Source: Candidatus Bathyarchaeota archaeon (GTDB lineage Archaea; Thermoproteota; Bathyarchaeia; Bathyarchaeales; Bathycorpusculaceae). From it: a DNA stretch of 64,000 nucleotides. The translations under genes were made by a program, and so were the position numbers. The stretch is taken from contig CAVZJV010000014.1 of assembly GCA_963775685.1 (NCBI GenBank), positions 2,144,001 through 2,208,000 of the forward strand, written 5' to 3'. Under the pieces are notes generated by a model, which was given only the letters and a program-made list of their open reading frames with translations, did not search any database and was not told the origin of the DNA. The first letter of the stretch is position 1; each line of letters begins with the position of its first letter. Of the stretch, positions 3,086 to 17,953 are shown in pieces.

Positions 3086-5551
3086 ATGACAAAAAGTAAA
3101 ATGATTATTGCTATTGCACTAACAATTATGATGATTTTGCCTTCTATTGCTTTAATAACAGAAGTGGCAGGCGTTGATGTCGAAACTAGAATGTTCATAA
3201 GCGCAGTTCCAAATCCTATCGGTGTCGGCCAAAGAGTGAACGTACAATGGTGGCTTGCAATACCGAATCCTGTTGCTGGGACCTCTTGGGAAAACGTCAA
3301 AGTAATAATTGAAAACCCCGACGGGCAAATCCAGACTTTTGACAACTTAAAATCTGATATAAATGGAGGAGCATACATTTCCTTTGTCCCCGACAGAGTT
3401 GGGACATATAAAGTACATGCAAGCTTTCCTGGACAATGGGTAAACACCACCGGACCAAACGGTTACACTCGATATTACACGCCTCTTGAATCTAAAGTAG
3501 TCGAAGTCACTGTTCAAGAAGAACCAATTTCTGTCACGCCAGAATTGCCTTTTCCAAGCGAATACTGGACCAGACCAATAAACTCCGAAAACAGAGAATG
3601 GTTCCAAATTAGTGGTAATTGGTTAATGGGCAAAGGCGACAAGGATGCCGTAGCTTTTGAAGGCAGTGGCAACGCAAACTTCTACTCTACCGCACCAAAC
3701 ACAGGACACATAATGTGGACAAAACCACTACTTCCCGGAGGAATAGTTGGAGGAGAAATTGGCTATGGCGAAGCATACTACGGCGGACTCAATTACGAAC
3801 CCATGTTCAGACCACCAATAATAATGAATGGCGTACTTTATTACGAAACAGCCGAACCACCAAGATATGGAGTGATAGCCGTTGACGTGCGCACAGGAGA
3901 AACGATCTGGTACCAAAACATCTCTTACGGCTCAGGTTTTAACAGCTTAAGATTAGGTCAAGTATTCGACTATGACTCAGAGAATCAACATGGTAGCTTT
4001 GCGTATCTTTGGTTTAGCAGCGGCAGTACCTGGTACATGCACGACGCCTTCACCGGAAACTACATTCTAAGCGTAAGCGGCGTACCAAACGGTTACATTC
4101 AAATGGGGCCCAAAGGTGAGATTCTAATCTACAATGTTAACAATGCTCAAGGTTACGTACAGCTATGGAACTCATCCGCAATGCCCGGGTTATTTACCGC
4201 TTCAAACCCCTCAGAGAACCCAAATTCTGAGTGGCGACCAGAACAATCACAAGGACAAACGATTAACGGCTCGACTGGAATTCAATGGAAAGTTTCAGTA
4301 CCAACCGTAACTGGCGCAGGAAATGGCATCCAATGGCTTGATGAAAAATTAGGAGTATTTATCACAACCTCAACTGTTCAGCGGCCTACTGATGCATGGC
4401 CAACATTTGTTCACACAGCTTATAGTACCGAAACAGGCAATTTGCTTTGGACACAGAATCGAACCAATATAGGCGATATGAAATACCCCGTATACATCAA
4501 ACCCTACTCCGGAGTGTATGCACTTCCTTACAGAGAGAATAAACAATGGATCGGCTGGGATATGAAAACTGGCGATGAACTGTGGAGAGTTGATGGTCCC
4601 GAAGATGACTGGGGTATCTTTGATGTAGGAGGTGGCTTTGTTGGCGATATATTCTATACTGCAGGATTTGCTGGAGTTGTAACAGGTTACAATATTGAAA
4701 CCGGACAGAAAGTATGGGAGTTCTACAGCGGCAATTCAGGATTTGATACAACCTACGGTACTTGGGGATTCTACGGTGCATCAATAATTGCTGATGGAAA
4801 AATCTTCATAGCACACAATGAGCATTCACCTGACCAACCATTATGGCGAGGAATGAAGATGTGGGCTATCAACGCAACGACAGGAGAGGGCATATGGAAC
4901 ATTTCTGGAGCCTATCAAGGTGGAAGAAATGCCATGGGTGCCCTTGCCGACGGATTACTGGTGTCACACAATGCCATGGATAATCAAATATACGCATTCG
5001 GTAAGGGTCCAAGCACCACAACCGCTACAGCGTCGCCGAAGGTTACAACACGAGGAAACAGTTTGCTGATTGAGGGAACAGTTATCGATATAGCTTCTGG
5101 CACTTCACAAAATGAGCAAAGGGCTCGTTTTCCAAACGGTGTTCCAGCAGTCTCTGACAATAGCATGACTCCTTGGATGGAATACGTATACATGCAGAGG
5201 CCTCGTCCAACCGACGTTACTGGTGTTACAGTATTAATCGATGTCACCGATGCCAATGGCAACTATCGAAACATCGGCACAACCACAAGTGATGCCAGCG
5301 GCGCGTTTAGTTTCCAGTGGACTCCTGACATTGAAGGAAAATACACAGTTACTGCTACTTTCGCAGGATCTGAGTCTTACTGGCCATCATCAGCAGAAAC
5401 AAGCTTTGCTGTGGACTCAGCAGCTCCAACAGCATCTCCGTATCCAGAGATAACTTTACCTCCCACAGAAATGTACTTCGCAATCAGCACCATCGCAATT
5501 ATAATTGCAATATCAATAGTCGGCTTGTTATTACTCAGAAAAAGACCATAA
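3086..5551 (+). CDS. Secreted, membrane-anchored PQQ-like beta-propeller surface protein
   Basis: Signal peptide; N- and C-terminal Ig-like segments; repeated AVD..TGE.IW propeller motifs; C-terminal TM helix followed by RKRP. Confidence 0.85.
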   Translation: MTKSKMIIAIALTIMMILPSIALITEVAGVDVETRMFISAVPNPIGVGQRVNVQWWLAIPNPVAGTSWENVKVIIENPDGQIQTFDNLKSDINGGAYISFVPDRVGTYKVHASFPGQWVNTTGPNGYTRYYTPLESKVVEVTVQEEPISVTPELPFPSEYWTRPINSENREWFQISGNWLMGKGDKDAVAFEGSGNANFYSTAPNTGHIMWTKPLLPGGIVGGEIGYGEAYYGGLNYEPMFRPPIIMNGVLYYETAEPPRYGVIAVDVRTGETIWYQNISYGSGFNSLRLGQVFDYDSENQHGSFAYLWFSSGSTWYMHDAFTGNYILSVSGVPNGYIQMGPKGEILIYNVNNAQGYVQLWNSSAMPGLFTASNPSENPNSEWRPEQSQGQTINGSTGIQWKVSVPTVTGAGNGIQWLDEKLGVFITTSTVQRPTDAWPTFVHTAYSTETGNLLWTQNRTNIGDMKYPVYIKPYSGVYALPYRENKQWIGWDMKTGDELWRVDGPEDDWGIFDVGGGFVGDIFYTAGFAGVVTGYNIETGQKVWEFYSGNSGFDTTYGTWGFYGASIIADGKIFIAHNEHSPDQPLWRGMKMWAINATTGEGIWNISGAYQGGRNAMGALADGLLVSHNAMDNQIYAFGKGPSTTTATASPKVTTRGNSLLIEGTVIDIASGTSQNEQRARFPNGVPAVSDNSMTPWMEYVYMQRPRPTDVTGVTVLIDVTDANGNYRNIGTTTSDASGAFSFQWTPDIEGKYTVTATFAGSESYWPSSAETSFAVDSAAPTASPYPEITLPPTEMYFAISTIAIIIAISIVGLLLLRKRP

Positions 5552-5557
5552 GCCAAC

Positions 5558-5590
5558 AAGAGGACACAAATAACCTCTTTTCCCTTTTTT
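5558..5590 (+). terminator. Hairpin plus T-tract terminator
   Basis: AAGAGG...CCTCTT followed by TTCCCTTTTTT directly after the stop codon. Confidence 0.55.
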
Positions 5591-6075
5591 ATTGATGACT
5601 ACCTTTAAGGTTTTACTAATTTTTCTGGAAGGCTATAAGGTGATTTGCTGGTATCTTGTTAGGTGTCAAAGTTATGACTTTTACTAAACAAAACCAGAAA
5701 GGAAGATTCACTTTCCCGAAAGTTGGACGTAAGTTGTGACGGATGAGTAGCTAGTAAAAAATGCGGCGTGGTAAGTAAAATTGAAATGTGACCATACCTT
5801 AACTATTACGGGAAAGAATAAGCGGTTAATAAAAACAATTCACGGCTAAATTTACAGAGGAGCTAAATTTTGACGAAGAAGACTACACAAACCAAATTTG
5901 AAGAATATAAGCTGAGCGCTGTCAAAATTCCAGGCAAACTATTCGAACATTTCTATCGCCTCATAATTTCTGAAATTAAATATACAAATATGGCACTTTG
6001 CCAAATTGACCTTAAAGAAGCGGACTGGACGCAACATTTTTTTACAACGTGCTCTTTTTCTGGAGGAGACTGAAT

Positions 6076-7176
6076 ATGTCTGTTTTTGTGTTTGACCAAG
6101 AAACAATAGGAATGATTCGCTACATCCTGGCGCTCCAACGTTTTAAGGAGTATTCAGCTGGACCTCAAGGGCTAGACGAACATCTTTGTGTTCTGTCTTT
6201 CGAAAGGGTTCTGATCCAAACCGGGCTAAACTTTCCAAAGTTTCAGAAAGAAGCTCCGAGTGATATCCGAGCATATGATGTCATCCGATTCTTGGAGCAG
6301 AAAAGCCAGATAAGTGCTACAACAGCTAAGAAACTGAGAGAATACGTGGATTTTCATGACTCCCTATTATCTTCCTCCTCTCAAACCACCCAAAAAAAGA
6401 CTAATCCTAAAGCACAAGAAATTTTGCGGTTCCTTTGCACCGAAGCGGGTGTGGATCAAGATGAAGAACTCAAAAATAGAACATTTGAGGACATAGCAAC
6501 TCTGGGAACAAAGAAATCTTCCGAAAATGAGTACTTTGAGAAACTTGTTGAATCGGATTTTGACAATCTCGATAAACTCTATGAGAAATGTCCAACCTTG
6601 CAGTTGGAAATAGAAAAAAAATTGACGACCTCATTGCGAGGTGCAAAAATATCAGGGTTCACACCTAATACTGGAGGGATATGGTTACCTTTTGTTTCAC
6701 TCAAAGCACCTAATAATAGAACACATATTGATAAGGCAAGTATTGGAGTTGTCTTTACACCGGTCGATATTAGGATAGGCTTGGATTTCGGAAGTCAAGC
6801 TCACAAGTATAGGATAAGATATTATGAACTGCTCCTGAATGGAGAATTAATTAACGAGGTTGAATCTCTTAATAATAGAGATATGGGATACTGTCTCTGT
6901 GATACTTTTTGGCACTACCACATAAGAAACTTGCAATCTCTCCAATGGTGTCTTACTCTTTACAGTAGCACCAAGATGACTATTGAGGGTGCTATTGAAG
7001 AGACCAAACAACTCGAAGGAACCCCCTTGACGGCAAACAGGTACTTAATTAGTAAAGTGATTAGGAGACGACCGGAAGACTTTGCTTACATTATAAATGG
7101 GGTTGTCGATGAGATTGCGAAGACTTTAAACGAACTTTACCCCACGATGGCACTTATTAACAAAGCCGAAATCTGA
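6076..7176 (+). CDS. Hypothetical protein (366 aa)
   Basis: Long ORF with GGAGGAG RBS before the ATG at 6076. Confidence 0.75.
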   Translation: MSVFVFDQETIGMIRYILALQRFKEYSAGPQGLDEHLCVLSFERVLIQTGLNFPKFQKEAPSDIRAYDVIRFLEQKSQISATTAKKLREYVDFHDSLLSSSSQTTQKKTNPKAQEILRFLCTEAGVDQDEELKNRTFEDIATLGTKKSSENEYFEKLVESDFDNLDKLYEKCPTLQLEIEKKLTTSLRGAKISGFTPNTGGIWLPFVSLKAPNNRTHIDKASIGVVFTPVDIRIGLDFGSQAHKYRIRYYELLLNGELINEVESLNNRDMGYCLCDTFWHYHIRNLQSLQWCLTLYSSTKMTIEGAIEETKQLEGTPLTANRYLISKVIRRRPEDFAYIINGVVDEIAKTLNELYPTMALINKAEI

Positions 7177-7753
7177 ACACTTCGACGTGATGCAGACAGA
7201 AATGTTTTGAGCTTTGATTCTATTCCTTCGTAAGTTACCAATAATCTCAGCTTACGATGCATTGAACTTTAAAACCCTTTGGGAATTGGGTTGGAAACTT
7301 TGCTAATTAAACCAACGGCAAAGTTCCAAAAGCCCAAGATACTTAACATAAACGGGTAGAACGTACCATGAAGTATACATTCCGCTACTCAACTTACAAG
7401 ACGACAACTTCGAAGTAACAGAGGCAAGTACTTAGGAGGAAATAAGAAACTGAGTATAGCAGGATGGAGGAAGTACGATAAATAACAATTAACAGAACAT
7501 CAATATGCCCTTTTACAAAAAACCTGATAAGTTCTAAACATAGTACTTCTAATGTTATCGTATAAACGCAGCTGCATATGTAAAGCTTTTATAACGTCTC
7601 CCATGGCAACACCTAAGGCATCTCCCGCAAAACTTCTGCCGCAGATGTAAGCATAGTCCTTGTCCGGAAATAACATTTCTGCCTGAATGGATTTTCGGCT
7701 GATTATTAGAACTTTCAGATCTTTCGGACTGTGGATATTTGTTTGTTTTCGGC

Positions 7754-8101
7754 TCAGCAGGTTACGTGAATGATGGCGACCGCTTTTCTTTTTTCGTTTT
7801 CGATTTTGTCTATGATTTCTGGCGTCGGCATCGCGTATGTCTCGTATTCGTCCAGTATTTTCTGGGCTTTTTCAGTGATTGGCAAAGCTGCCTCATAGCC
7901 TGTTCCGACATAAACGACTTCTGGCTTCTCTTGCGACAAAAAATCCATTTCTTTCTCAGACAAAGGCGTATGGCCATAAATCGGTTTAAACTCTTTGGAT
8001 TTTTTCTTTTTTCGTTTTGAGATGTTACCGTCGACATGCATTATGATGTCTTCTTCATATTTGTGCCCGAATAATTTGACCGAACCAAAAGAGTCTTTCA
8101 T
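7754..8101 (-). CDS. Mth938-like (DUF498) domain protein
   Basis: SFGSV...YEED, PEVVYVGTG and C-terminal HVTC motifs. Confidence 0.8.
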   Translation of the reverse strand: MKDSFGSVKLFGHKYEEDIIMHVDGNISKRKKKKSKEFKPIYGHTPLSEKEMDFLSQEKPEVVYVGTGYEAALPITEKAQKILDEYETYAMPTPEIIDKIENEKRKAVAIIHVTC

Positions 8102-8206
8102 TCAACACACCACTGCCCATTGGGCACTATTATGAAGGCATCGACTCGATTTGAACCTATTCCCTCACAGTTGCCCCTGCAATGTACGCTGAATCAGGGC
8201 ATGCGC

Positions 8207-8340
8207 AAGGTCTTCCAAAATCTGGGGGGTATAGAGGGAGTGAGGCTTTACGGGTTTTAGCTTATCATCAGAACATATAAAAAATATAAAATAGATATCG
8301 ATTTGTATTTCTCTTTCTATCCCGTTTCACGACAAGCCTT
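8207..8340 (+). repeat. Cassette-boundary repeat R1 (134 bp)
   Basis: AAGGTCTTCC-N14-ATAGAG...TTATCATCAGAACATA-(A-rich)...TTCTAT...GACAAGCCTT; right arm degenerate. Confidence 0.85.
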
Positions 8341-8505
8341 CGCCATCGTTAGTCCATGAGCCACCGGCGACAGTAAACGTTGACAACGCGCATTTTGGAA
8401 AGAGGTTTCACAATTCATATCCTGAATATTATGCTGGCTTTCATAAGTGAGTTAAGTACCTTGAATCTTAGTTGATCATCAACAACAGAATTCGAGGAAA
8501 ATAGT

Positions 8506-8709
8506 TTGAGCCAACAGTTGGATGTTAAAGGCAGGAAAGAATTGGAAGCTCAGATGGCTACGGTTTTCGGCGAAAAAATCAAAGACCTATCTGTGGAACT
8601 ACAAGAAATACTATTAGATGACTTGGCAACCGCGTTTGAGAATAGGCTTATCGTATTCAAACGTTCCAAGGAAACTAGGCGAGAAGGTTGGAACCATGAG
8701 ACGGTCTAA
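8506..8709 (+). CDS. Small hypothetical protein
   Basis: GAGGA RBS, TTG start; overlaps the downstream wHTH gene. Confidence 0.65.
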   Translation: MSQQLDVKGRKELEAQMATVFGEKIKDLSVELQEILLDDLATAFENRLIVFKRSKETRREGWNHETV

Positions 8710-8989
8710 ACTGGAAATGTATGTTGATATATTGAATGTCTTGGCTCAAAGGGGGCCTTTGAAGTTGACTCACGTTATGTACAAGGCTAATGTCAACTGC
8801 GGCGTTCTGAAGGAGCACCTTGAATTCCTAATTAAGCAGGGACTGGTTGATGAGAGAATTATTCGAAGAGAAAGAGTAGTCTACGCGATTACGCAACGGG
8901 GCATTAATGTGCTCAAGCAGTTCAAAGAGCTCAAAGAAGTGCTTCCTATAATCGAAGAAACAAAAAACCAAACACCCTATATGTTCTAA
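8696..8989 (+). CDS. Winged-helix DNA-binding protein (ArnR1/HTH_45-like)
   Basis: MRRSKLEMYVDILNVL...LTHVMYKANVNC...YAITQRG. Confidence 0.85.
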   Translation: MRRSKLEMYVDILNVLAQRGPLKLTHVMYKANVNCGVLKEHLEFLIKQGLVDERIIRRERVVYAITQRGINVLKQFKELKEVLPIIEETKNQTPYMF

Positions 8990-9065
8990 CACTCCAATTC
9001 TTTTTCATATTCAACTGCGTAAACTGTCGACTAAGAGAACTCTGCCTTCTTCCTGCAAGCCTACC

Positions 9066-9205
9066 AAGGTTTTCCACGAATTTGTTCTCTTCTGGAGAGG
9101 AATGGGCTGTCTTAGTTTTATATTATCATCAGAACATAGAAAACAAAATAAATAAAATAAATTATGATTTGGCTTATCCTATGGCGTCCAATCTTGAAAG
9201 GCCTT
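9066..9205 (+). repeat. Cassette-boundary repeat R2 (140 bp)
   Basis: AAGGTTTTCC...TTATCATCAGAACATA-(A-rich)...TCCTAT-N13-GAAAGGCCTT. Confidence 0.85.
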
Positions 9206-9227
9206 GGTTATGGAGTGTTTGTGGCAT

Positions 9228-9557
9228 CTAATGTACACGCTTTGACAGGCGATTCTTCTGAGCATAAAGCAGTGGGGTTGTTTGATTTCGGGTTTCGTCT
9301 ATTATAGGTAACGCTTGTGTGAGTTCATGGAAATACTTCAGAACATTGATGCCGCGTTGAGTGATTGCGAAAACTACTCGCATTTTCGTGATCGTTCGTT
9401 TTTCGACCAGAGCTTGCTTAATTAAGAAGTCTAAGTAATCTGTAAGAACGTTACAGTTAACGTTAGCTTTGTACATGATATGTGTCAGCTTTGATGGACC
9501 TCTATGAGCTAACACGTTGAGAATGTCAACATAAATTATTAGTTTTGATCGTCTCAT
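9228..9557 (-). CDS. Winged-helix DNA-binding protein, paralog of 8696..8989
   Basis: MRRSKLIIYVDILNVLAHRGP...LTHIMYKANVNC...FAITQRG. Confidence 0.85.
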   Translation of the reverse strand: MRRSKLIIYVDILNVLAHRGPSKLTHIMYKANVNCNVLTDYLDFLIKQALVEKRTITKMRVVFAITQRGINVLKYFHELTQALPIIDETRNQTTPLLYAQKNRLSKRVH

Positions 9558-9920
9558 CTTTGAACCCTTTCCCTCTCACATAAACGTATATATCTGCATG
9601 TTATGTGGCTGATTGGTATAAGCTTTTGCTATTTTTCGTTGTTTAATTCAAGCAATTATGCTTTTTATTAACAAATTATGATATTAGTATGATAAAAAAG
9701 AATTAAATGATGCATAAATTAGTGAATAATTGATGAATTGCAATGTGACTTGTGACTGTGCCGTGCCTACTACAATATTTAATATGATTTTCAAAGAATA
9801 ACTAGAATTTTCCTTGCTCAAGGATAGAGGAAATGAGAATGAGAAAAAAGGACATTCAAGAAAGTAATTTCATTTTGAGTAAAGATCGTACACGAAAATG
9901 TTGTTGCTCATAAAACACGC

Positions 9921-10118
9921 ATGCCTATTATCAAGTGTGTCTGTGGCTTCGAAATTTTAGTTGTGCCTGATTTGAAGGCTATGGACCGAGCCATAAAAAA
10001 TCATGTTGCCAAACACAAGAAATCGGATTATGGTATAGTGTTTGATTCTTTGGAGGAGTTTTTGACAGAGCGGACTTTGATGGCAGCAAGCAAAATGAGT
10101 TTGCCAAATGTAAGTTAG
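9921..10118 (+). CDS. Small hypothetical C2H2-like zinc-binding protein
   Basis: CVCG...HVAKH; ends 9 bp before R3. Confidence 0.65.
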   Translation: MPIIKCVCGFEILVVPDLKAMDRAIKNHVAKHKKSDYGIVFDSLEEFLTERTLMAASKMSLPNVS

Positions 10119-10127
10119 TCGCTAGCC

Positions 10128-10260
10128 AAGGTCTTCCAAAATTTGGGCCCCATAGAGGAGAAGGTCTTCTGGAAAATATCTAATCATCAGAATATATAAA
10201 AATCAAATAAATTAAAATCAAACTTTTCTACTCTATACTCGCCAATTTTCGGCGGACCTT
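10128..10260 (+). repeat. Cassette-boundary repeat R3 (133 bp)
   Basis: AAGGTCTTCC-N14-ATAGAG...TAATCATCAGAATATA...CTCTAT-N14-GGCGGACCTT. Confidence 0.9.
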
Positions 10261-10287
10261 TGTTCCCGCAATGGTCAATTAATTGTG

Positions 10288-10515
10288 TCATGGCTTAAAG
10301 ATAATGCAAACGCCCATTTCATTGTTTATGCGAAACTTTAGGCCTTTTTTGGCGATGAAATTTTGCAAAGGCGGTCTGCATTCATCCTTTATTGCCAGTT
10401 CAAACTTGCCCTTGTTTTCTCTGACAAAAATGGCTGTTGGCTGCGCTAAGTCATTAGCGATAATCTCTTTTAGCAGCGCCACTGTCTGCTCTCTTTGCAA
10501 GTGTACGTTCCCCAA
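10288..10515 (-). CDS. Small hypothetical protein
   Basis: 75-aa ORF with upstream TATA-like TTATATA; ends 27 bp from R3. Confidence 0.6.
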   Translation of the reverse strand: MGNVHLQREQTVALLKEIIANDLAQPTAIFVRENKGKFELAIKDECRPPLQNFIAKKGLKFRINNEMGVCIIFKP

Positions 10516-10684
10516 GTCCTTTAGTTGTTGACTTTGTATATAACGATTTGGCGAATTTCAATGTACATTGTATCGATTTTAGCCAGAGATTTTTCCGGAA
10601 ATTTTCGGACGCGCCCACACATAGGATCCTAGCCTTTGGACGGATTTAACATTTCTACCCAAGTGGATTTTCAGTGGACGGGTT

Positions 10685-10885
10685 TTAGATTTTTCTTACA
10701 GTGGCTACGCGTCCGGTTGGCGTGTCGGTCATTTGCCATTCGAGCGTATCGCCTGGTTGTAAATTCAAAAATTCAGCTATTCCCTCGGGTATTGTTGCCC
10801 TCAAGCTTTTCGATTTTGGCCTGGCTATTGATGTTTTCGATTGAAGAGGCATGTGGCTTTTTCTCCGTTTACTTCTATGTTCCAT
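10685..10885 (-). CDS. AbrB/MazE/SpoVT-family DNA-binding protein
   Basis: SLRATIPEGIAEFLNLQPGDTLEW motif. Confidence 0.8.
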   Translation of the reverse strand: MEHRSKRRKSHMPLQSKTSIARPKSKSLRATIPEGIAEFLNLQPGDTLEWQMTDTPTGRVATVRKI

Positions 10886-10964
10886 AGATTATTTATTTCT
10901 ACCTATTTATTGGCAGATAAGTTTATATGTGTTTTTGACCATGCTTTATTGTAGGTAGATATGT

Positions 10965-11244
10965 ATGGCAACACAAGTCTTAACTCGAAAACAAATGGGC
11001 GACATGATTGCCCTGGAAGACATCGTTGAATTGAATCCTCAAACCTATTTCGTCAAGTCCCAGAGTTCGAGAGGTGGCTACTCTGTGACAAGGTTCGGGC
11101 AAAGTTGGACGTGCGATTGTCCCCGACTACCGGTACCGGGGAATCAAATGCAAGCGCATCCACGCTGTTGAAGCTCAAATTTCGCAGGTTTCCTCTAAAC
11201 AGGCATGGCCGTTTCCGATAGGGTTATGGGAGGCGACGCGATGA
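10965..11244 (+). CDS. SWIM zinc-finger protein (1-bp frameshift in the C-run at ~11121)
   Basis: YFVKSQS...Y.V...WTCDCP; removing one C gives DYRYRGIKCKRIHAV, and the stop then overlaps the next ATG (ATGA). Confidence 0.65.
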
Positions 11245-11456
11245 TCGAGAGCTGTCCCGACTGCGGATCGAAACATCTTAAGACTTTAGGAATAGAAAAG
11301 AGCGATCGGCTTGGCGACAACTGCACCGTTCTCGTTACAATGTGTAAGTGCAAAGACTGTGAGTGCGAGTTCCGCGAATTCATGGTCACCCACTGGCACC
11401 TCGCAATCACCAAGCACGACCGAATAGAGAGGCTGTTCATGGAGGCGCAACCTTGA
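11241..11456 (+). CDS. Small zinc-ribbon protein
   Basis: GGAGG RBS; CPDC...CKDC. Confidence 0.7.
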   Translation: MIESCPDCGSKHLKTLGIEKSDRLGDNCTVLVTMCKCKDCECEFREFMVTHWHLAITKHDRIERLFMEAQP

Positions 11457-11659
11457 CGTGCCCTGAGTGCCGCGAGATGAACTCCAAGGTTCTCGGATTC
11501 ACAGAATCAAGCAACCTACGAATTGCCCAATTCAAATGTAAGAGTTGTGGATGCGTCTATTCCGTCAAAACTCAAACGGAAATCAATGTCTTGGAACATG
11601 GCAAACGGGCTTGGATGATGGAAGTCTATCAAAAAAAAGAGGAGCGTCAAGCCCTATGA
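11453..11659 (+). CDS. Small zinc-ribbon protein
   Basis: GGAGG RBS, TTG start overlapping the previous stop; CPEC...CKSC. Confidence 0.7.
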   Translation: MTCPECREMNSKVLGFTESSNLRIAQFKCKSCGCVYSVKTQTEINVLEHGKRAWMMEVYQKKEERQAL

Positions 11660-11701
11660 AATCTCCTATAATAGGCTTGAACACATTTGCCGTAAATCCT
11701 G

Positions 11702-12295
11702 CTATGCTTTCCCCGCTTTGTCTTTAGGAGCTGAAGGAGCAACAATTATCTGGCCTTTTAGGACATCAAACGTAATGCTGTGGTCTTTTAAGAAATTAGA
11801 AACCGAGGCCTTGATATTCTTAAAATATCGATCCCATGTAGCTTTGTATCTATCAAGTTTTGCATTGATCATGGCGTCTCTAACTTCACCTTGCAGATAA
11901 AGGTTAATTGTCTCAGTTATGCAAGTGCTAGCTTTGGTTAAATCGTTTAGAAGATCAGAATTGTCAATTCTTGCAAAGGCAACATCTGTTTTGTCTTCGG
12001 GATTCGTAGAAAATAGAGATTTAGCCGAAATTATAACCGCAGGGCTACCTTTTATTTTGAAGGTTTTTATCACTTGCTTGTATTCTTCAGCCGCTAAACT
12101 CCATGCTCCAACGAAAATTGTCTTGCCGGCATCTTTTCCGTAATCCAATAACGCCTTTTTCAACTCCTCATATTTTATCATTCCTGGAATGTAGAAAACG
12201 TACACATCGCAGTCTTCCGGAATTTCAGAGGATAGTTTCAGGTCAGGAACGCTAATTTTCATTATTGTTTGAGGTTTAAAAAGTAGTTCAGGCAT
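11702..12295 (-). CDS. Hypothetical protein (possible thioredoxin-like alpha/beta fold)
   Basis: Intact 197-aa ORF starting ~60 bp from R4. Confidence 0.7.
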   Translation of the reverse strand: MPELLFKPQTIMKISVPDLKLSSEIPEDCDVYVFYIPGMIKYEELKKALLDYGKDAGKTIFVGAWSLAAEEYKQVIKTFKIKGSPAVIISAKSLFSTNPEDKTDVAFARIDNSDLLNDLTKASTCITETINLYLQGEVRDAMINAKLDRYKATWDRYFKNIKASVSNFLKDHSITFDVLKGQIIVAPSAPKDKAGKA

Positions 12296-12357
12296 TTCAA
12301 CCGCCGGTTTTGGATATGATGTTTTCTTAATTTAAGCCTTTGCAGACCTTAAATTAT

Positions 12358-12492
12358 AAGGTCTTCCAAAAATTTACCCCCATAGAGGGAAGAAGGTCTT
12401 TCCGGTTTAAGCTAATGCTCAGAACACAAAAATATAAAAAAATATAATATTGAATGAACCTGCTCTATACCCCTCCGTCGGTGGAAGGCCTT
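12358..12492 (+). repeat. Cassette-boundary repeat R4 (135 bp, best conserved)
   Basis: AAGGTCTTCC-N14-ATAGAG...TAATGCTCAGAACA...CTCTAT-N14-GGAAGGCCTT. Confidence 0.9.
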
Positions 12493-12892
12493 ATTTGGTG
12501 AAGCTGTCGGGTTGAGCGTCTTCTTCAAGCAAGCTTGTATACAAGCGAAATTTTTCATCGTAAATGTCGGCCAAATGCGCATCATCCCAGATTTTTGATC
12601 GGCTCCTGACGGCTGCGTGCCAAAACTTCTGCTCTTCTTCATATCCGGCAACGTAAACTTCAAGAAAATAGAAGACTTCGCATTCTTGATTCTCTATCTT
12701 AGGAATGAAGGCATAAGTGACAATGCCTTGTTCGTTGTCCGAAGTAAATTTCATCGCGTTTTGGATGCTGGCAGACATTGTTTTTAGCGTTTCTTTGATT
12801 GCTGTTTTATGGCTTTTGGGAATCTTGTTTTTCTTGTTCCAGAGGATTTCGCAGTCTAAAGACAGAGAACTCTTCCATGTGGCATCTTGCAC
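12491..12892 (-). CDS. Hypothetical protein filling the first (integrase-proximal) cassette
   Basis: GAGGA RBS and GTG start ~21 bp inside R5; the TAA stop overlaps the end of R4. Confidence 0.7.
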   Translation of the reverse strand: MQDATWKSSLSLDCEILWNKKNKIPKSHKTAIKETLKTMSASIQNAMKFTSDNEQGIVTYAFIPKIENQECEVFYFLEVYVAGYEEEQKFWHAAVRSRSKIWDDAHLADIYDEKFRLYTSLLEEDAQPDSFTK

Positions 12893-12913
12893 ATTAGTGG
12901 TTCCTCGGGATAT

Positions 12914-12970
12914 AAGGCCTTCCAACAATTGGGGGGGTATAGAGGGAAGAAGGTCTGTCTGGTTAGCCTA
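12914..12970 (+). repeat. Half repeat R5 (left arm only), candidate attI-like insertion site
   Basis: AAGGCCTTCC-N15-ATAGAGGGAAGAAGGTCTGTCTGGTTAGCCTA matches the left half of R3/R4, then diverges into the integrase upstream region. Confidence 0.8.
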
Positions 12971-13073
12971 CGGCCTCTTTTTGAGCTTATTTTCTTGCCC
13001 ATTTCTTACCATAGGGACGACTTGTACAGTATTAATTCAGATTGCTTTGGGCTTTCCTTTGAGGTAATCCTGA

Positions 13074-14279
13074 ATGAGCTTTCTCGCCTGCCCAACCTGC
13101 AAATCATTGCGACTGTTCAAGAACGGCAAGCGCAAGCTTCGGACTGGCGAGAAGGTTCAAACTTACATATGCCGCGAGTGCGGGAAACGGTTTGCTGAAC
13201 CTCGGCCGCAACAGGTTTCTCCTGAGAGGTCAATAAATAGCCCAGGCGGTACATCGATAGATAGTCAAATATGCGCTTTAAAGGAAGCGAAAAATTTGGT
13301 CTTTGCACAAAAAACCAAGATTTGTGCGGGAGAAAAACAACCACATGAACCAGCAAAGTTATTGCCACCAGACGCAGTAAGCTTAATCACACAGTTGATG
13401 GCATGGCTTGAGAAAGAATGCTATGCCCACGAAAATAGCTACCCCGCCTTTCTACGTTCGCTTGTTAATCGCGGCGCCAACCTAAGGGACCCCGAAAACG
13501 TCAAAGAAATCATCGGGAAAATGAATTGCAAGAACGGCACCAAGATGCTGTATAGCTATGCCTACAAAGCCTTGGCAGATATGCTGAAAATACCTTTTGA
13601 GCGACCTAAGAACCTGAAACAAGACGACTTTGACCCTACATTCCTGATGAGTCTGAACTTGACGCAGTGATAAACGCAGCACTAAAAAAAAGAATGGCTA
13701 CCTACCTGCAAACACTCAAAGAAACTTTCGCTGACCCAGGAGAGGCTTTACGAATCAAATGGATTGACATCAATGAAAAAAATAGCACAGTCAAAATCAA
13801 CTACCCTATAAAAGAACACAATACGCGGACGCTCGAGGTCTCAAACAAGCTAATTGCCATGCTCAACGCTTTACCCAAGACATCCGAACTTATTTTTCCC
13901 ATAAAATACTCCAGTATGCTATATACTTACGTCCGCCTGCGTAAGCGTGTCGCTGAGTTGCAGCAAAACCCTCGTATTCCATCAGTCGAGCTTAAGGTCT
14001 TTCCGCCATTGGGGAGGCACAATGCTTGCTTGGAAGTCCAACGGCAATGTTTTGATAGTGAAAAATATGTTTGGACATAAGAACGTAAAAAACACGATGA
14101 GGTATATCGGAAAGATACATTTCAAGGATGACGACTTTGAAACAACAGCCGCAACTACTCTCGAGGAGGTCCTTGCATTAGGAAAAGCTGGTTGGATAAA
14201 GTATGATGAAATCACCGTCGGCGGCACAATTGTACACGTTTGCAAGAAACCCAAGAAGTTCCAAAGCGCTGCGGTCTAA
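13074..14279 (+). CDS. Tyrosine recombinase/site-specific integrase with N-terminal zinc ribbon (two 1-bp frameshifts, ~13635 and ~13994)
   Basis: N-terminal CPTC...CREC; box I-like LKETFADPGEALRIKWIDI; box II SFRHWGG...FGHKNVKNTMRY; three overlapping ORFs join on single-base corrections. Confidence 0.85.
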
Positions 14280-14401
14280 AAAAACCGCTCAGAATCTCGA
14301 TATATACTATTAAGGTCAAAATAGATATCATTAAGCTTTTATACGTATGTTGATGAGAGATGTTAAAAAGAAGATGAGCGCTTCCGAGAGGTAAAGACTA
14401 A

Positions 14402-17400
14402 ATGCCCTACATAAAAAAAATCGAGTTAAAAGGCTTTAAGTCTTTTGGACCCCAAACAGTAAAAGTTAATCTAGATAAGGGGTTCACGGCCATAACTGGT
14501 CCAAACGGAAGCGGCAAAACCAACATCATGGACGCACTCCTCTTCTCGTTGGGCGAATTGAGCACCAAAAGGCTCCGTGCCGAAAACTCGGCTAAACTGA
14601 TTTTTCATGGTTCCGAGAAAGCTGGGCAAGAAAAAGCAAAAATGGCAAAGGTAGTTGTCCAATTCGACAACACTGATGGCACCATGCCTGTTGATACGAC
14701 TACCGTAACGATTTCAAGAGAAGTATACCGCAACGGGCAAAGTATTTACCGCTTAAACGGGCGCAGAATGTCCCGCACACACATTACCGAAACCCTCTCC
14801 ATGGCTGCAATCAGTAGCATGAGCCAAAACATCATCCCCCAGGGCACAATCACGCGTTTAACCGACCTAACCTCTATGGAAAGGCGAAAAATCATTGAAG
14901 ATCTCATCGGCATAGCTCAGTACGACTCTGAAAAGACTGAGGCGGAAGAGAAACTTCGTGCTGCCGATATATCCATCCGTACCGCCATGGGCAGAATCGA
15001 CGAAGTTCAAAAACGCCTCGACGACCTTGAAAGGGAACGCAACCAACTCCTTCGCTACAATTTTATCCAAGCCGAAATCCGAAAATTTCAAGCCGTCAAA
15101 ATCTCAAACGACGTTGCCCAGCAAAACACAAAAATTAGCGAAAACACAGCCCAAGCCCTGAAGGTCAAAGAGAGAGTTGACAAGCTAAAAGAACAACGGG
15201 ACCTACGAAGGAGCAAACGTCATACAATTGAGGGTGACTGGAGAAAGCTCAGCGGTGAAGGCCTTGAACAAGGAGGCTCAGAAGTTCTCAAGGTCCAAAT
15301 AAAGATTGGGGAGCTAAAATCCAATTTAACTGAATTAACCACCAAGATTAGTTCGGGGCAGTCGAGCCTAGAAAGCTTCAGACGTGTTAGAGAAAACAAC
15401 CTAAACCAACACGACACGTTGCAGAAAGAAATAAGGGAAAACAGGCTTAGAATCCGCTCCTTCCGTACGGAGCTCGAAAAACTAAAGGATCAGTTGGCAG
15501 AAAAACAAGTAGCACATGAAGGGCTAGCAAAGGAAACTGCCCAGCTCTGGGAGGGACTAGACGGCAACAACCAGCAAATCCGCGCTCTAGATAACCAGAC
15601 CCAAGAGCACCTTAAGCGACTGGCATACTTGCGTTCTGAATACAAACAAGACAAAGCAGCCTTACGCCTCTGCGCTGGCAGACTCAAGAACCTGAGCGTA
15701 CGCAAAGAGAAATTCCAGTCAAGCCAAGTTGAAATCGAAAAATCCTTGTCTGAACTTGAGCAGGTGCAGCGTGACCAGAGAGCCCAATTCAAAAACCTTG
15801 AACATACAATCGAACGCAAAAAACTTCAAAAAGAAACTGTTCAAAAAGAAATTGCGGAAGCAGAAAAAATCGCTAGCTCCGCAAAAGACGCCGTAGTAGA
15901 ATTCGCGACACAAAGAGACCTTGCCGCAACCATCGCTGCCGAAGAAAAAGCCCTGCGAGGAATTGAAGAAATGGGCGATGTGGGCGCGATTTCGGGTATT
16001 CATGGTCGGCTTCGCAACTTGATAAAGCTCGATAAGAGCTTCAAGAAAGCCATCGAAGCAGCCGCCACAGGCTGGCTAGACGCACTGGTCGTAAAGGACG
16101 TCGACATTGCCTTCACCTGCACAGAAACACTGCGTCGCATGAAACTTGGAAGAATCAAAATCATTCCCCTCCAAGGCGCAATAACCATCAAAAACAAAGC
16201 ACCCCCCAAACGCGAAGGCGTCATGGGGCCCCTCTCTAGTTTCATGAAGTATGATGGCGAATTTGAACTAGCGGTTAATTATGTGTTCGGAGATACAATA
16301 GTTGTCTCAAACGACAAGACCGCTTTTGCCTTATCAAATGAAGGTTACCGCGCTGTCACTACAAGTGGCGACCTCTATGAGCCAGGCGCTTTTGAGGGAG
16401 GTTACTACCGTGCACCAATCGACTTCTCTACAATAATCCCCAGTGAAGGCGCACTAAAGAGCCTTGACGAAGCTGTAAAGGCGCTCCAGACCCACCTGAT
16501 CCAACGCGGCACGGACATTGTAAGCATCGAAGAAGAGCTTGAACACGCCAAGATTGAGATAACCCGGCTAGTTGACTCTATCGCCACCTTAGACAGGGAA
16601 ATCATTAGGGTAAAGAGGGGCGTTAAACGTACTCAGTTCAACATTCGCCACATCGACAAGTACGGCGGCAAACTTGAACGCGAAGCAGCCGCTTACAAAG
16701 GACGCATGGCTATGTTCCGCAACGAACGCAACTCCATTCAGGGAAGCCTCAAAAAAATCCACACTGAAATCGCAAGCTTGAGGTTGAAAACTGACCTAGC
16801 ACACATCCAGGAGATGGAGGTTCAGCGGGAAAAGCTCGGTGAAGAAGCCAACACTCTTCGGCAAAGGTTAGGGTCAGTGCAAACGGAAATATCTACTCAC
16901 CAATCCCAGTTTGACAGGGTTTTGCGGGTGAGTTACAAGAACACCAAGATAACGCTTTCAAGAATGGATCAGCAGCAAGGTAAACTTGCAAAAGAAGTGG
17001 CAGATGCACTGCTTGAACGCGACACAATCAAAAAAGAAGCCGAGGAGCTGGAGAAGAGTCGCGTGGAGCTTTCAAATGCTGTGCTCTCTGCGCGTGAGGA
17101 ATCCAAAAAATTCACCAGCCAAATCGATAGCATCGACGGGGAGTTGCGGCTTTTGGACACCGAGTACGAGCAGGCTGACAGGCTTCTAAATCAACTTAAC
17201 CTGGGTATAGAAACCACTCAGATGCGTCTTCAGCAGCTTCAAGGGCAACTTAAACAGTTCGGCTATGAGCAGCCCTTAGAAACTAGTCCTCGGCAGGTGC
17301 AGGAGGCAGAAACAACCATTCGCATGATGCAGTTTGAAATGGAACGCATCGGCGCCATAAACCAGCTGGCGGCCCAGCATTACTCTGACCAGATTTCACG

Positions 17401-17953
17401 TTACCGAGAACTGTCCGTGCGCCTAAACGAGTTGGAGCGGGAAAAACAAGCCATTGTGGCGTTTATGGATGAGATTGAAGCCAAAAAACGCAAGGTTTTT
17501 ATGAATGCGTTTGAAAAAATTAACATCAGCCTAAAAGTGTATTTTGCCAAGCTTACAGGCGGTGGAGAAGCAACCCTTAAGTTGGAAAACCCAGAAGAAC
17601 CCTTCTCCGGAGGTATAGACATGGTGGTGCAGTTCCCAAACAAACCCTCCATTGTTGTAAGCGGTGCAAGCGGCGGCGAACGTTCCGTTTCAGCCGTTAG
17701 CTTCATATTCTCCCTCAAAGAATTCTCTCCCGCATCCTTTTACATCCTAGACGAAGTTGATGCCCACTTAGATGCGTACCACACAACCAAACTTGCCGAG
17801 GTACTTTTGGAGGAAGCGGGAAAAATCCAGTTCATTGTAATCAGCCTACGCCCGGAAATGGTTAACAAAGCACAGAAAGTCTACGGCGTCTACGAACGCA
17901 ACGGCATCTCAAATGTGGTAACGGCAAAATTCCCGCAGGAGGCACCACACTAA
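14402..17953 (+). CDS. smc: Chromosome segregation protein SMC
   Basis: Walker A GPNGSGKTN; coiled coils; hinge GIHGRL; signature ASGGE; Walker B LDEVDAHLD. Confidence 0.97.
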   Translation: MPYIKKIELKGFKSFGPQTVKVNLDKGFTAITGPNGSGKTNIMDALLFSLGELSTKRLRAENSAKLIFHGSEKAGQEKAKMAKVVVQFDNTDGTMPVDTTTVTISREVYRNGQSIYRLNGRRMSRTHITETLSMAAISSMSQNIIPQGTITRLTDLTSMERRKIIEDLIGIAQYDSEKTEAEEKLRAADISIRTAMGRIDEVQKRLDDLERERNQLLRYNFIQAEIRKFQAVKISNDVAQQNTKISENTAQALKVKERVDKLKEQRDLRRSKRHTIEGDWRKLSGEGLEQGGSEVLKVQIKIGELKSNLTELTTKISSGQSSLESFRRVRENNLNQHDTLQKEIRENRLRIRSFRTELEKLKDQLAEKQVAHEGLAKETAQLWEGLDGNNQQIRALDNQTQEHLKRLAYLRSEYKQDKAALRLCAGRLKNLSVRKEKFQSSQVEIEKSLSELEQVQRDQRAQFKNLEHTIERKKLQKETVQKEIAEAEKIASSAKDAVVEFATQRDLAATIAAEEKALRGIEEMGDVGAISGIHGRLRNLIKLDKSFKKAIEAAATGWLDALVVKDVDIAFTCTETLRRMKLGRIKIIPLQGAITIKNKAPPKREGVMGPLSSFMKYDGEFELAVNYVFGDTIVVSNDKTAFALSNEGYRAVTTSGDLYEPGAFEGGYYRAPIDFSTIIPSEGALKSLDEAVKALQTHLIQRGTDIVSIEEELEHAKIEITRLVDSIATLDREIIRVKRGVKRTQFNIRHIDKYGGKLEREAAAYKGRMAMFRNERNSIQGSLKKIHTEIASLRLKTDLAHIQEMEVQREKLGEEANTLRQRLGSVQTEISTHQSQFDRVLRVSYKNTKITLSRMDQQQGKLAKEVADALLERDTIKKEAEELEKSRVELSNAVLSAREESKKFTSQIDSIDGELRLLDTEYEQADRLLNQLNLGIETTQMRLQQLQGQLKQFGYEQPLETSPRQVQEAETTIRMMQFEMERIGAINQLAAQHYSDQISRYRELSVRLNELEREKQAIVAFMDEIEAKKRKVFMNAFEKINISLKVYFAKLTGGGEATLKLENPEEPFSGGIDMVVQFPNKPSIVVSGASGGERSVSAVSFIFSLKEFSPASFYILDEVDAHLDAYHTTKLAEVLLEEAGKIQFIVISLRPEMVNKAQKVYGVYERNGISNVVTAKFPQEAPH

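Follow-up and report, generated by a model that had tools for sequence, protein, structure and literature searches.

A 135-bp arm-core-arm repeat between small gene cassettes of one archaeal genus, probably an attP-like recombination site

Lambda-type attP/attL/attR sites are more than 100 bp long and combine outlying arm-type sites with a central core, and their integrase carries an extra N-terminal domain that binds the arm sites, while the attC sites of integrons, imperfect inverted repeats whose single-strand folding is maintained by compensatory changes, have the consensus ends RYYYAAC...GTTRRRY and the pdif sites are only 28 bp long and alternate in orientation. The repeat analyzed here, of approximately 135 bp, lies in a 64,000-nt stretch of a Candidatus Bathyarchaeota archaeon genome (assembly GCA_963775685.1, contig CAVZJV010000014.1, positions 2,144,001–2,208,000 of the forward strand), which is called the window below; four full copies and one left-arm-only copy (Ra to Re) are present between positions 8207 and 12964 of the window and alternate with small gene cassettes. 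Integrons with canonical folding attC sites and an IntI with an additional domain have been described from archaea (Ghaly et al., 2022, PMC9668308), archaeal elements are known to integrate in tandem at a single site (PMC8371274, PMC6563490), and tandem accretion at att sites is known from the bacterial cis-mobilizable elements (CIMEs) and the tycheposons of Prochlorococcus. In the literature searched, no description was found of a 135-bp arm-core-arm site family bounding sub-kilobase cassettes, tandem integration and integrase-less accretion as such being already known.

The repeat is probably a duplex attP-like site of mostly integrase-less mobile cassettes, forming an integron-like accretion system that is not an integron. 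It would act as an att site bounding small cassettes, most of them without an integrase, which in one archaeal genus follow each other head to tail in arrays on the chromosome. In its circular form a cassette would have a single complete site, made up of a left arm (P), a core (O), an A-rich tract and a right arm (P'), and an internal site of an array would combine two cassettes, its P arm coming from the left-hand neighbour and its P' arm from the right-hand one, the array ends being half-sites of the type P-O or O-P'. The strands would be exchanged in the ATCATCAG stretch of the core, around which there is a weak, imperfect and perhaps partly compositional dyad. The two bipartite arms are predicted duplex binding sites for the recombinase or a helper protein, and the A-rich tract is a putative bend or spacer. 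As the enzyme, a tyrosine recombinase carrying a Zn ribbon at its N-terminus is likely; genes of this kind are located at array ends and read away from them. Many of these genes are decayed, so that the cassettes would move via copies acting in trans.

Architecture and distribution of the repeat

The arms of the repeat are inverted copies of each other around an asymmetric centre. The left arm consists of box A (AAGGYCTTCC), a spacer and box B (ATAGAG), the right arm is the same in inverted form, and the centre holds, in this order, a second AAGGTCT, a core resembling TAATCATCAGAACA and the A-rich tract. Box A is near-palindromic (AAGGCCTT), with box B located two helical turns off. Box A alone was not significant in the window (15 matches with at most one mismatch vs 8.97 ± 3.56 expected), and the composite arm pattern AAGGYCTTCC-N12-16-ATAGAG was found 5 times vs 0.00 expected from 100 shuffles.

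An earlier sequence-only reading of the same DNA had described this layout together with 14-bp spacers and centres of 73–75 bp, all of which could be read directly in the copies Rc and Rd. In Rc (10128–10260, + strand, nhmmer E 2.1e-30) the left arm is made up of box A at 10128–10137, a 14-bp spacer at 10138–10151 and box B at 10152–10157, the second AAGGTCT occupies 10161–10167 and the core 10181–10195, and the right arm follows with box B' at 10231–10236, a 14-bp spacer at 10237–10250 and box A' at 10251–10260, the centre being 73 bp long. The 75-bp centre of Rd (12358–12492, + strand, nhmmer E 2.6e-32), with the second AAGGTCT at 12393–12399 and the core variant TAATGCTCAGAACAC at 12413–12427, is enclosed by a left arm with box A at 12358–12367, a 14-bp spacer of the C-run form at 12368–12381 and box B at 12382–12387, and by a right arm with box B' at 12463–12468, a 14-bp spacer at 12469–12482 and box A' at 12483–12492. 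The spacer was also 14 bp long in the left arm of the copy starting at 8207.

Spacer length was followed further in a larger set of 120 non-overlapping matches, 102 of them full length, originating from the genome of the window and from 30 loci of 20 other genomes. An arm was scored if at least 8 of 10 positions of box A and at least 5 of 6 positions of box B agreed and no second placement was equally good; among 2040 shuffled sequences, only 2 reached the same thresholds. The left spacer (62 of 102 arms scorable) was 14 bp long in 41 copies, 13 in 16, 12 in 2, 15 in 2 and 11 in 1, and the right spacer (47 of 102 arms scorable) was 14 bp in 38 copies, 13 in 3, 15 in 2, 18 in 3 and 12 in 1. The centre varied from 66 to 78 bp with a mode of 74 in the 33 copies with both arms scorable. 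A length of 14 bp is a strong mode, give or take one base, and no strict rule, and the spacer sequence is only half free: its first seven bases, AAAAT[C/T]T, were conserved about as well as the boxes (top-base frequency 0.51–0.93), while its last six bases formed a run of G or of C in 45 of 62 left arms, with G runs in 28 of 47 right arms and C runs in none of these. From the original statement of conserved spacing with free sequence, the first half is retained as a mode and the second holds only beyond these seven bases. The best conserved part of the repeat was its internal core, above the ends.

A profile search of the genome of the window recovered 14 full copies, 3 left halves and 2 right halves, distributed over three arrays and isolated copies. 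With a sequence-only covariance model the family was found in 70 of 120 genomes of the genus, with about 507 matches (150 listed and 357 more). A pattern search outside the genus produced matches without the spacer motif which were no commoner than those of a reversed-pattern control, and these matches in other families were on both grounds regarded as chance. Within an array the sites were mostly in direct orientation, and the 63 cassettes delimited by consecutive co-oriented copies were 32–5497 bp long with a median of about 750 bp. Segments of cassettes were found in different contexts across species of the genus at 88–96% identity. The contigs C69, C98, C54, C90, C95 and C122 of the fragmented G048 assembly end within the conserved repeat core; the repeat counts in such assemblies are therefore underestimated, and partial matches at contig ends mimic half-sites.

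Half-sites, the recombination point and recombinase genes

At C14:2392206-2392880 of the genome of the window (G000) a single 0.6-kb cassette is flanked by a right half, comprising core, A-rich tract and right arm, and a left half, comprising left arm and core, with the direct repeat AATCATCAGAA as the sole stretch common to both. The order of right half, cassette and left half is that expected for an integrated circle and the reverse of that of an interrupted element. Half-sites inspected by eye in five genomes (G000, G091, G073, G048 and G093) overlapped only in ATCATCAG: the left halves ended after ...AACATA (G000; also G091, which shares the flank), ...AAAACC (G000) and ...CCTCAG (G073), and the right halves began at AAAATCATCAG and CGGTTTT.. 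(G000), TAATAATCAG (G048) and ATCATCAAAAC (G093). In G001 and G112 the left half runs on through the A-rich tract to tRNA-Cys, and border half-sites keeping one arm and the shared core were present in these two genomes as well as in the five above. The candidate half-site L115 was rejected as a short form without the A-rich tract.

A second indication of the recombination point came from two arrays of the same genome. The window array (A) and array B have cassettes 2 and 4 in common (86–90% identity); the 2.1-kb cassette 3 is missing from array B, where the junction site corresponds to Rc in its left part and to Rd in its right part, changing over at the core. Variability among core positions is highest in the core centre (CATCAG, GGTTAG, GCTCAG and others). 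The best core dyad, TTTTAGCTAAT-(4–6 bp)-AACATATAAAA, scored 5.4–5.6 of 11 vs a mean of 3.38 (sd 0.73) for 171 placements, in an A/T-rich context in which the symmetry is perhaps partly compositional; this weak imperfect dyad around the core centre gives a thin resemblance to the core build used by tyrosine recombinases, in which two inverted recombinase-binding elements enclose an overlap of 6–8 bp. A histogram of BLAST homology endpoints in the array regions was uninformative, as the alignments continue through the conserved repeats, and a synteny search for empty sites of the window array and of the cassette at C14:2392206-2392880 recovered none, their flanks not being adjacent in other genomes.

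Some arrays are located close to tRNA genes (tRNA-Cys, tRNA-Thr). A core-to-tRNA-Cys pattern taken as attB matched only G001 and G112, and with 2 of 120 genomes tRNA-Cys was rejected as a general target. Two left half-sites of G112:C9 (L099:71-200 and 3788-3920) are followed about 60 bp further on by a 14-base copy of the tRNA-Cys 3' end that belongs to no tRNA gene, which suggests that whole arrays may ride on elements integrating into tRNA-Cys. In the last site of array B (L001:1391-1530; G000:C14:1523233-1523370), about 300 bp from a tRNA-Thr(GGT), the centre is inverted relative to the neighbouring sites and an extension of the left-arm type is present on both sides.

The window array is followed by a tyrosine recombinase pseudogene (13074–14279, + strand) with an N-terminal Zn ribbon, which reads away from the array and is interrupted by two frameshifts, near 13640–13670 and near 14000; its best relatives are only 48–52% identical over the N-terminal third. 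The next gene is SMC (14402–17953), and remnants of the same recombinase gene end adjoin SMC in G090, G092 and G103 and not in G107. At three loci of other genomes (L024, L025/L082 and L076) an intact integrase of this family (386 aa in L024) reads away from a full site, its start lying 13–21 bp beyond the left arm, and the three sites have one core variant in common. Truncated integrases were found after the last array site in L032, L078, L042 and L026, followed in L032 by a 368-aa gene that, judged by sequence alone, probably encodes an aminoacyl-tRNA synthetase. Among solved structures the integrase was nearest to XerA (5hxy, E 1.9e-9; 4a8e, E 3.8e-8), with IntI4 reaching only E 0.007. The proposal of an attP-like arm-plus-core duplex site, already made in the sequence-only reading, gained only indirect support, from the overlap of half-sites in the core, the A/B switch at the core and the integrases or their remnants at array ends.

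The Zn-ribbon N-terminus (48 aa) of the window pseudogene (13074–13217) was identical in 37 of 48 positions (77%) to that of the site-adjacent G093 integrase (L024:4263-4406), while over the N-terminal third (198 aa) the two were only about 47–52% identical. Integrases that are 70–76% identical to the G093 enzyme elsewhere had only 31–48% of its N-terminus in common. Judging from these identities, the integrase is a domain mosaic, with a hint that the Zn-ribbon N-terminus may be an exchangeable arm-reading domain; against this hint, an integrase of the repeat-free genome G047 carries the same Zn-ribbon N-terminus (87.5% identical). Over its 110-bp leader and its first codons (12961–13073), the window integrase gene was homologous to a G128 integrase gene (L074:7569-7680), the protein being otherwise diverged; this homology sets in at AGCCTAC, the very point at which the resemblance of Re to the repeat ends.

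The window array and the cassette genes

The array in the window begins with the full site Ra (8207–8340, + strand, nhmmer E 7.8e-35), in which a left spacer of 14 bp and a TTATCATCAGAACA-like core are combined with a degenerate right arm. Cassette 1 (8341–9065) contains open reading frames (ORFs) at 8506–8709 (+) and 8618–8989 (+), the latter encoding an HTH_45 winged helix protein. It is followed by the full site Rb (9066–9205, + strand, nhmmer E 1.4e-24), with a degenerate left box B and a right arm of the CCTATGG type, and by cassette 2 (9206–10127) with an HTH_45 gene at 9228–9557 (-) and a 65-aa ORF at 9921–10118. Cassette 3 (10261–12357), placed between Rc and Rd, is 2.1 kb long and holds at least six ORFs in both directions, including Zn-ribbon proteins and a weak MazE/AbrB-like match. 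Cassette 4 (12493–12913, - strand) consists of a single 145-aa ORF (12491–12928), the stop codon of which lies inside box A' of Rd. The last site, Re (12914–12964, + strand), has a left arm with a 15-bp spacer and the second AAGGTCT and is without core and right arm; its likeness to the repeat ends where the integrase leader starts. The window cassettes thus hold two HTH_45 genes, Zn-ribbon proteins, the weak MazE/AbrB-like match and unknowns. The HTH_45 genes 8618–8989 (+) and 9228–9557 (-) are paralogues in neighbouring cassettes with opposite orientation, and such HTH_45 proteins are candidates for a site-binding helper.

Several segments of this region have relatives elsewhere. Cassette 2 has an approximately 86% identical copy in array B, and cassette 4 is found in array B (90%), G001 (88%), G112 (92%) and G111 (81%), the homology in the latter three genomes extending from just before the upstream core to the downstream left arm. 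In G001 and G112 the cassette with these core-to-left-arm limits (window 12398–12956) is 88–92% identical and terminates in the left half-site adjoining tRNA-Cys. Within cassette 3 a 704-bp segment (11650–12353), containing a 197-aa ORF (11702–12295) with no Pfam match, is 95–96% identical in two further species (G114:C4 and G093:C5), where no repeat is present within 3 kb; its right limit lies 4 bp before Rd and its left limit at no site, so that it looks like a recent transfer of a sub-cassette module. To the left of the array, a 375-aa ORF without a Pfam match (6049–7176) is 80–85% identical in many genomes of the genus at loci unlinked to SMC, and the whole stretch 4500–14300 is therefore a variable island. 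The most widespread cassette was L008:13324-13881 (G000:C14:2392323-2392880), detected in dozens of genomes at 70–93% identity and containing a short - strand ORF that is ribbon-helix-helix-like by eye; the repeat adjoins 6 of its 8 matches in five fully listed genomes, and it is present in repeat-free genomes as well.

The 63 cassettes showed no orientation bias of their genes relative to the repeat, the longest ORF lying on the - strand of 33 cassettes and on the + strand of 25, with 5 cassettes having none. Scanning of the cassettes in the fetched loci other than those of G000 resulted in 98 ORFs of at least 60 aa, 61 of which had no Pfam match; the remainder included nitroreductase (5), HTH_45 winged helix (5), DUF4177 (3), histidine kinases (3) and Alba (2), with single cases such as SIR2-like, HNH and others.

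Alternative explanations and comparison with known systems

A number of observations weigh against the proposed attP-like function. Isolated full copies and inverted copies occur, true half-sites are few (about 10, others being decayed copies), and three apparent half-sites of G048 were dropped as contig ends. Gain or loss of a cassette with a switch at the core could also result from homologous recombination between repeats. Where homologous cassettes have different neighbours (6 + 6 pairs), identity of the adjoining arms reached only 0.55–0.70 and showed no sharp step at the core, the switch being clean only in the A/B pair. Metagenome contigs gave no direct sign of excision (eight DNA runs from five studies, 5–6% of sampled words, with joints inside repeats and short sides). 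The integrase family, with 346 matches in 101 of 120 genomes, extends into repeat-free genomes, no intact integrase is present beside any array in the genome of the window, and the window gene itself has two frameshifts. When the 30 genes most similar to the site-adjacent G093 integrase were compared, only the G093 gene itself had a repeat at a distance of up to 1.5 kb, and a second integrase adjoining a site has its nearest relatives in repeat-free genomes as well; clade/repeat co-occurrence revealed no integrase clade specific to repeat-bearing genomes. No cognate integrase clade could therefore be defined. Furthermore, an integrase directly adjoins only 3 of the 168 matches found in five repeat-rich genomes.

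Folding was assessed on 108 aligned copies, in which the arms showed no covariation: 65.8% of the cells were paired vs 65.6 ± 0.4 after partner shuffling (159 of 500 shuffles equal to or above the observed value), the covariation score was 0.127 vs 0.123 ± 0.005, and RNAalifold gave 0 consensus pairs. Spacer identity was 0.41 within a copy, 0.399 between the arms flanking one cassette and 0.416 ± 0.011 for random pairs, the single-strand DNA fold z-scores of the four window copies ranged from -1.39 to +0.85 on both strands, and Rfam had no match at the repeat copies, its only hit in the window, PrfA (E 0.53), lying elsewhere. A C run was present in 18 of 62 left arms where pairing needs a G run, a dimorphism by which any hairpin is broken in these copies. 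The conclusion that the repeat is neither a folded attC-like hairpin nor a structured RNA is well supported, in agreement with the sequence-only reading, which had argued against a single-strand hairpin; pairing equals the shuffled level and is not compensatory, as would be expected for two arms each read by a protein on duplex DNA. It is very improbable that the repeat belongs to a true integron, as an attC-like site that an IntI-type integrase would recombine in folded single-stranded form, even though integrons exist in archaea (PMC9668308) and tandem arrays of small cassettes with 61 of 98 ORFs lacking a Pfam match, sites forming imperfect inverted repeats and a tyrosine recombinase at the array end reading away are all features of this kind. 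Apart from the missing covariation and stable fold, the ends of the repeat are AAGG...CCTT instead of RYYYAAC...GTTRRRY, the crossover is placed mid-site, where half-sites overlap in ATCATCAG and the A/B switch occurs, and not at an outer-end R box, by which each attC falls almost entirely to one cassette, the cassette genes run in both directions where those of integrons generally have one, and the integrase is nearest to XerA. A structured non-coding or cis-regulatory RNA transcribed from each copy is hardly credible for the same reasons of pairing, with the additional point that the copies bear no orientation relation to neighbouring genes; its conserved length and sequence blocks and a G-T wobble-compatible variation at box A position 5 (pair 7/160) are what would speak for it.

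Two further explanations do without folding. In size, 30-bp inverted ends and A/T-rich interior the repeat resembles a miniature inverted-repeat transposable element (MITE), i.e., a 135-bp non-autonomous transposon preferring intergenic island positions, which would also fit tens of copies per genome, restriction to one genus and the isolated full copies. Target-site duplications, looked for at 2–6 bp and four offsets, were at chance level in 83 copies (those of 4 bp in 2, 0, 1 and 0 copies vs about 0.4 expected), the order of right half, cassette and left half is the reverse of an interrupted MITE, the complete unit stands beside integrase start codons and not around a transposase, and the internal core is better conserved than the ends; an autonomous transposase partner with the same ends was not seen in about 0.6 Mb of inspected loci, without a dedicated search. 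A transposon of this type is accordingly considered quite unlikely. Homologous recombination of full copies never yields half-sites, and the existence of right and left halves overlapping only in ATCATCAG speaks against a repeated intergenic protein-binding or promoter element, serving for instance a regulator or a chromatin protein, located at gene borders of variable islands, the modules of which are shuffled by homologous recombination instead of a dedicated recombinase. The absence of orientation bias of the cassette genes relative to the repeat and the recurrence of integrase genes or their remnants at array ends also disagree with such an element. It would accommodate the conserved AACATATAAAA block, which reads as a TATA-like box on the - strand, the small DNA-binding proteins encoded in cassettes (HTH_45 in 5 of 98 ORFs plus two in the window, and two Alba), the lack of a defined cognate integrase clade and the A/B cassette difference, and is rated unlikely overall.

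The duplex attP-like site of mobile cassettes remains the favored explanation. A broader interpretation is advanced only tentatively and is on balance doubtful: the arrays might represent an independently evolved integron-like archaeal capture system, accepting cassettes in any orientation, with a duplex arm-core-arm site and with Zn-ribbon tyrosine recombinases whose N-terminal domain, exchanged as a module with the adjacent site, would read the arms, and the cassettes would pass from species to species within the genus. Should the sites function in the proposed way, there would be a second way to build a cassette-capture platform, duplex and lambda-like as opposed to folded attC, and about 500 sites with hundreds of small, mostly unknown genes would be shuffled in one archaeal genus. 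The archaeal integrases would then have a defined substrate, namely a site of 135 bp in which the arm boxes can be separated and an exchange region of 8 bp is predicted, and the repeat would serve as a marker for the mobile gene pool of these uncultured organisms.

The arrays have several properties in common with integrons: small accessory cassettes, mostly of unknown function, are arranged in tandem with a recombination-site repeat between them, a tyrosine recombinase at the array end reads away, and many arrays are without a working integrase, like the clusters of attC sites lacking integron-integrases (CALINs). In contrast to integrons, the site is 135 bp long with bipartite arms, a central crossover and neither fold nor covariation, the cassette genes are oriented in both directions and therefore probably have their own promoters, the recombinase carries an N-terminal Zn ribbon, and each internal site would be a hybrid of two cassettes. 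The small site-bounded gene modules with a recombinase encoded elsewhere resemble the pdif modules of Acinetobacter plasmids, which depend on XerC/XerD, and differ from them by the 135-bp sites in mostly direct orientation within an array. The similarity to Lambda-type att sites includes the long armed site with a central core, border half-sites sharing only the core, an A/T-rich stretch that could bend DNA and an integrase with an extra N-terminal domain; here, however, the arms are inverted copies and not an asymmetric set, no IHF, Xis or Fis equivalents were identified, the N-terminal domain is a Zn ribbon, and the elements are 0.4–5 kb cassettes without an integrase. Finally, integrase-less att-flanked units appear stacked beside integrase-bearing ones, as in CIME and tycheposon accretion, and some arrays are near tRNA-Cys and tRNA-Thr as in tandem accretion. 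Compared to the latter, the att core does not correspond to the 3' end of a tRNA, the units are much shorter (median inner length about 750 bp), and a conserved 135-bp arm-core-arm module is repeated about 500 times across the genus.

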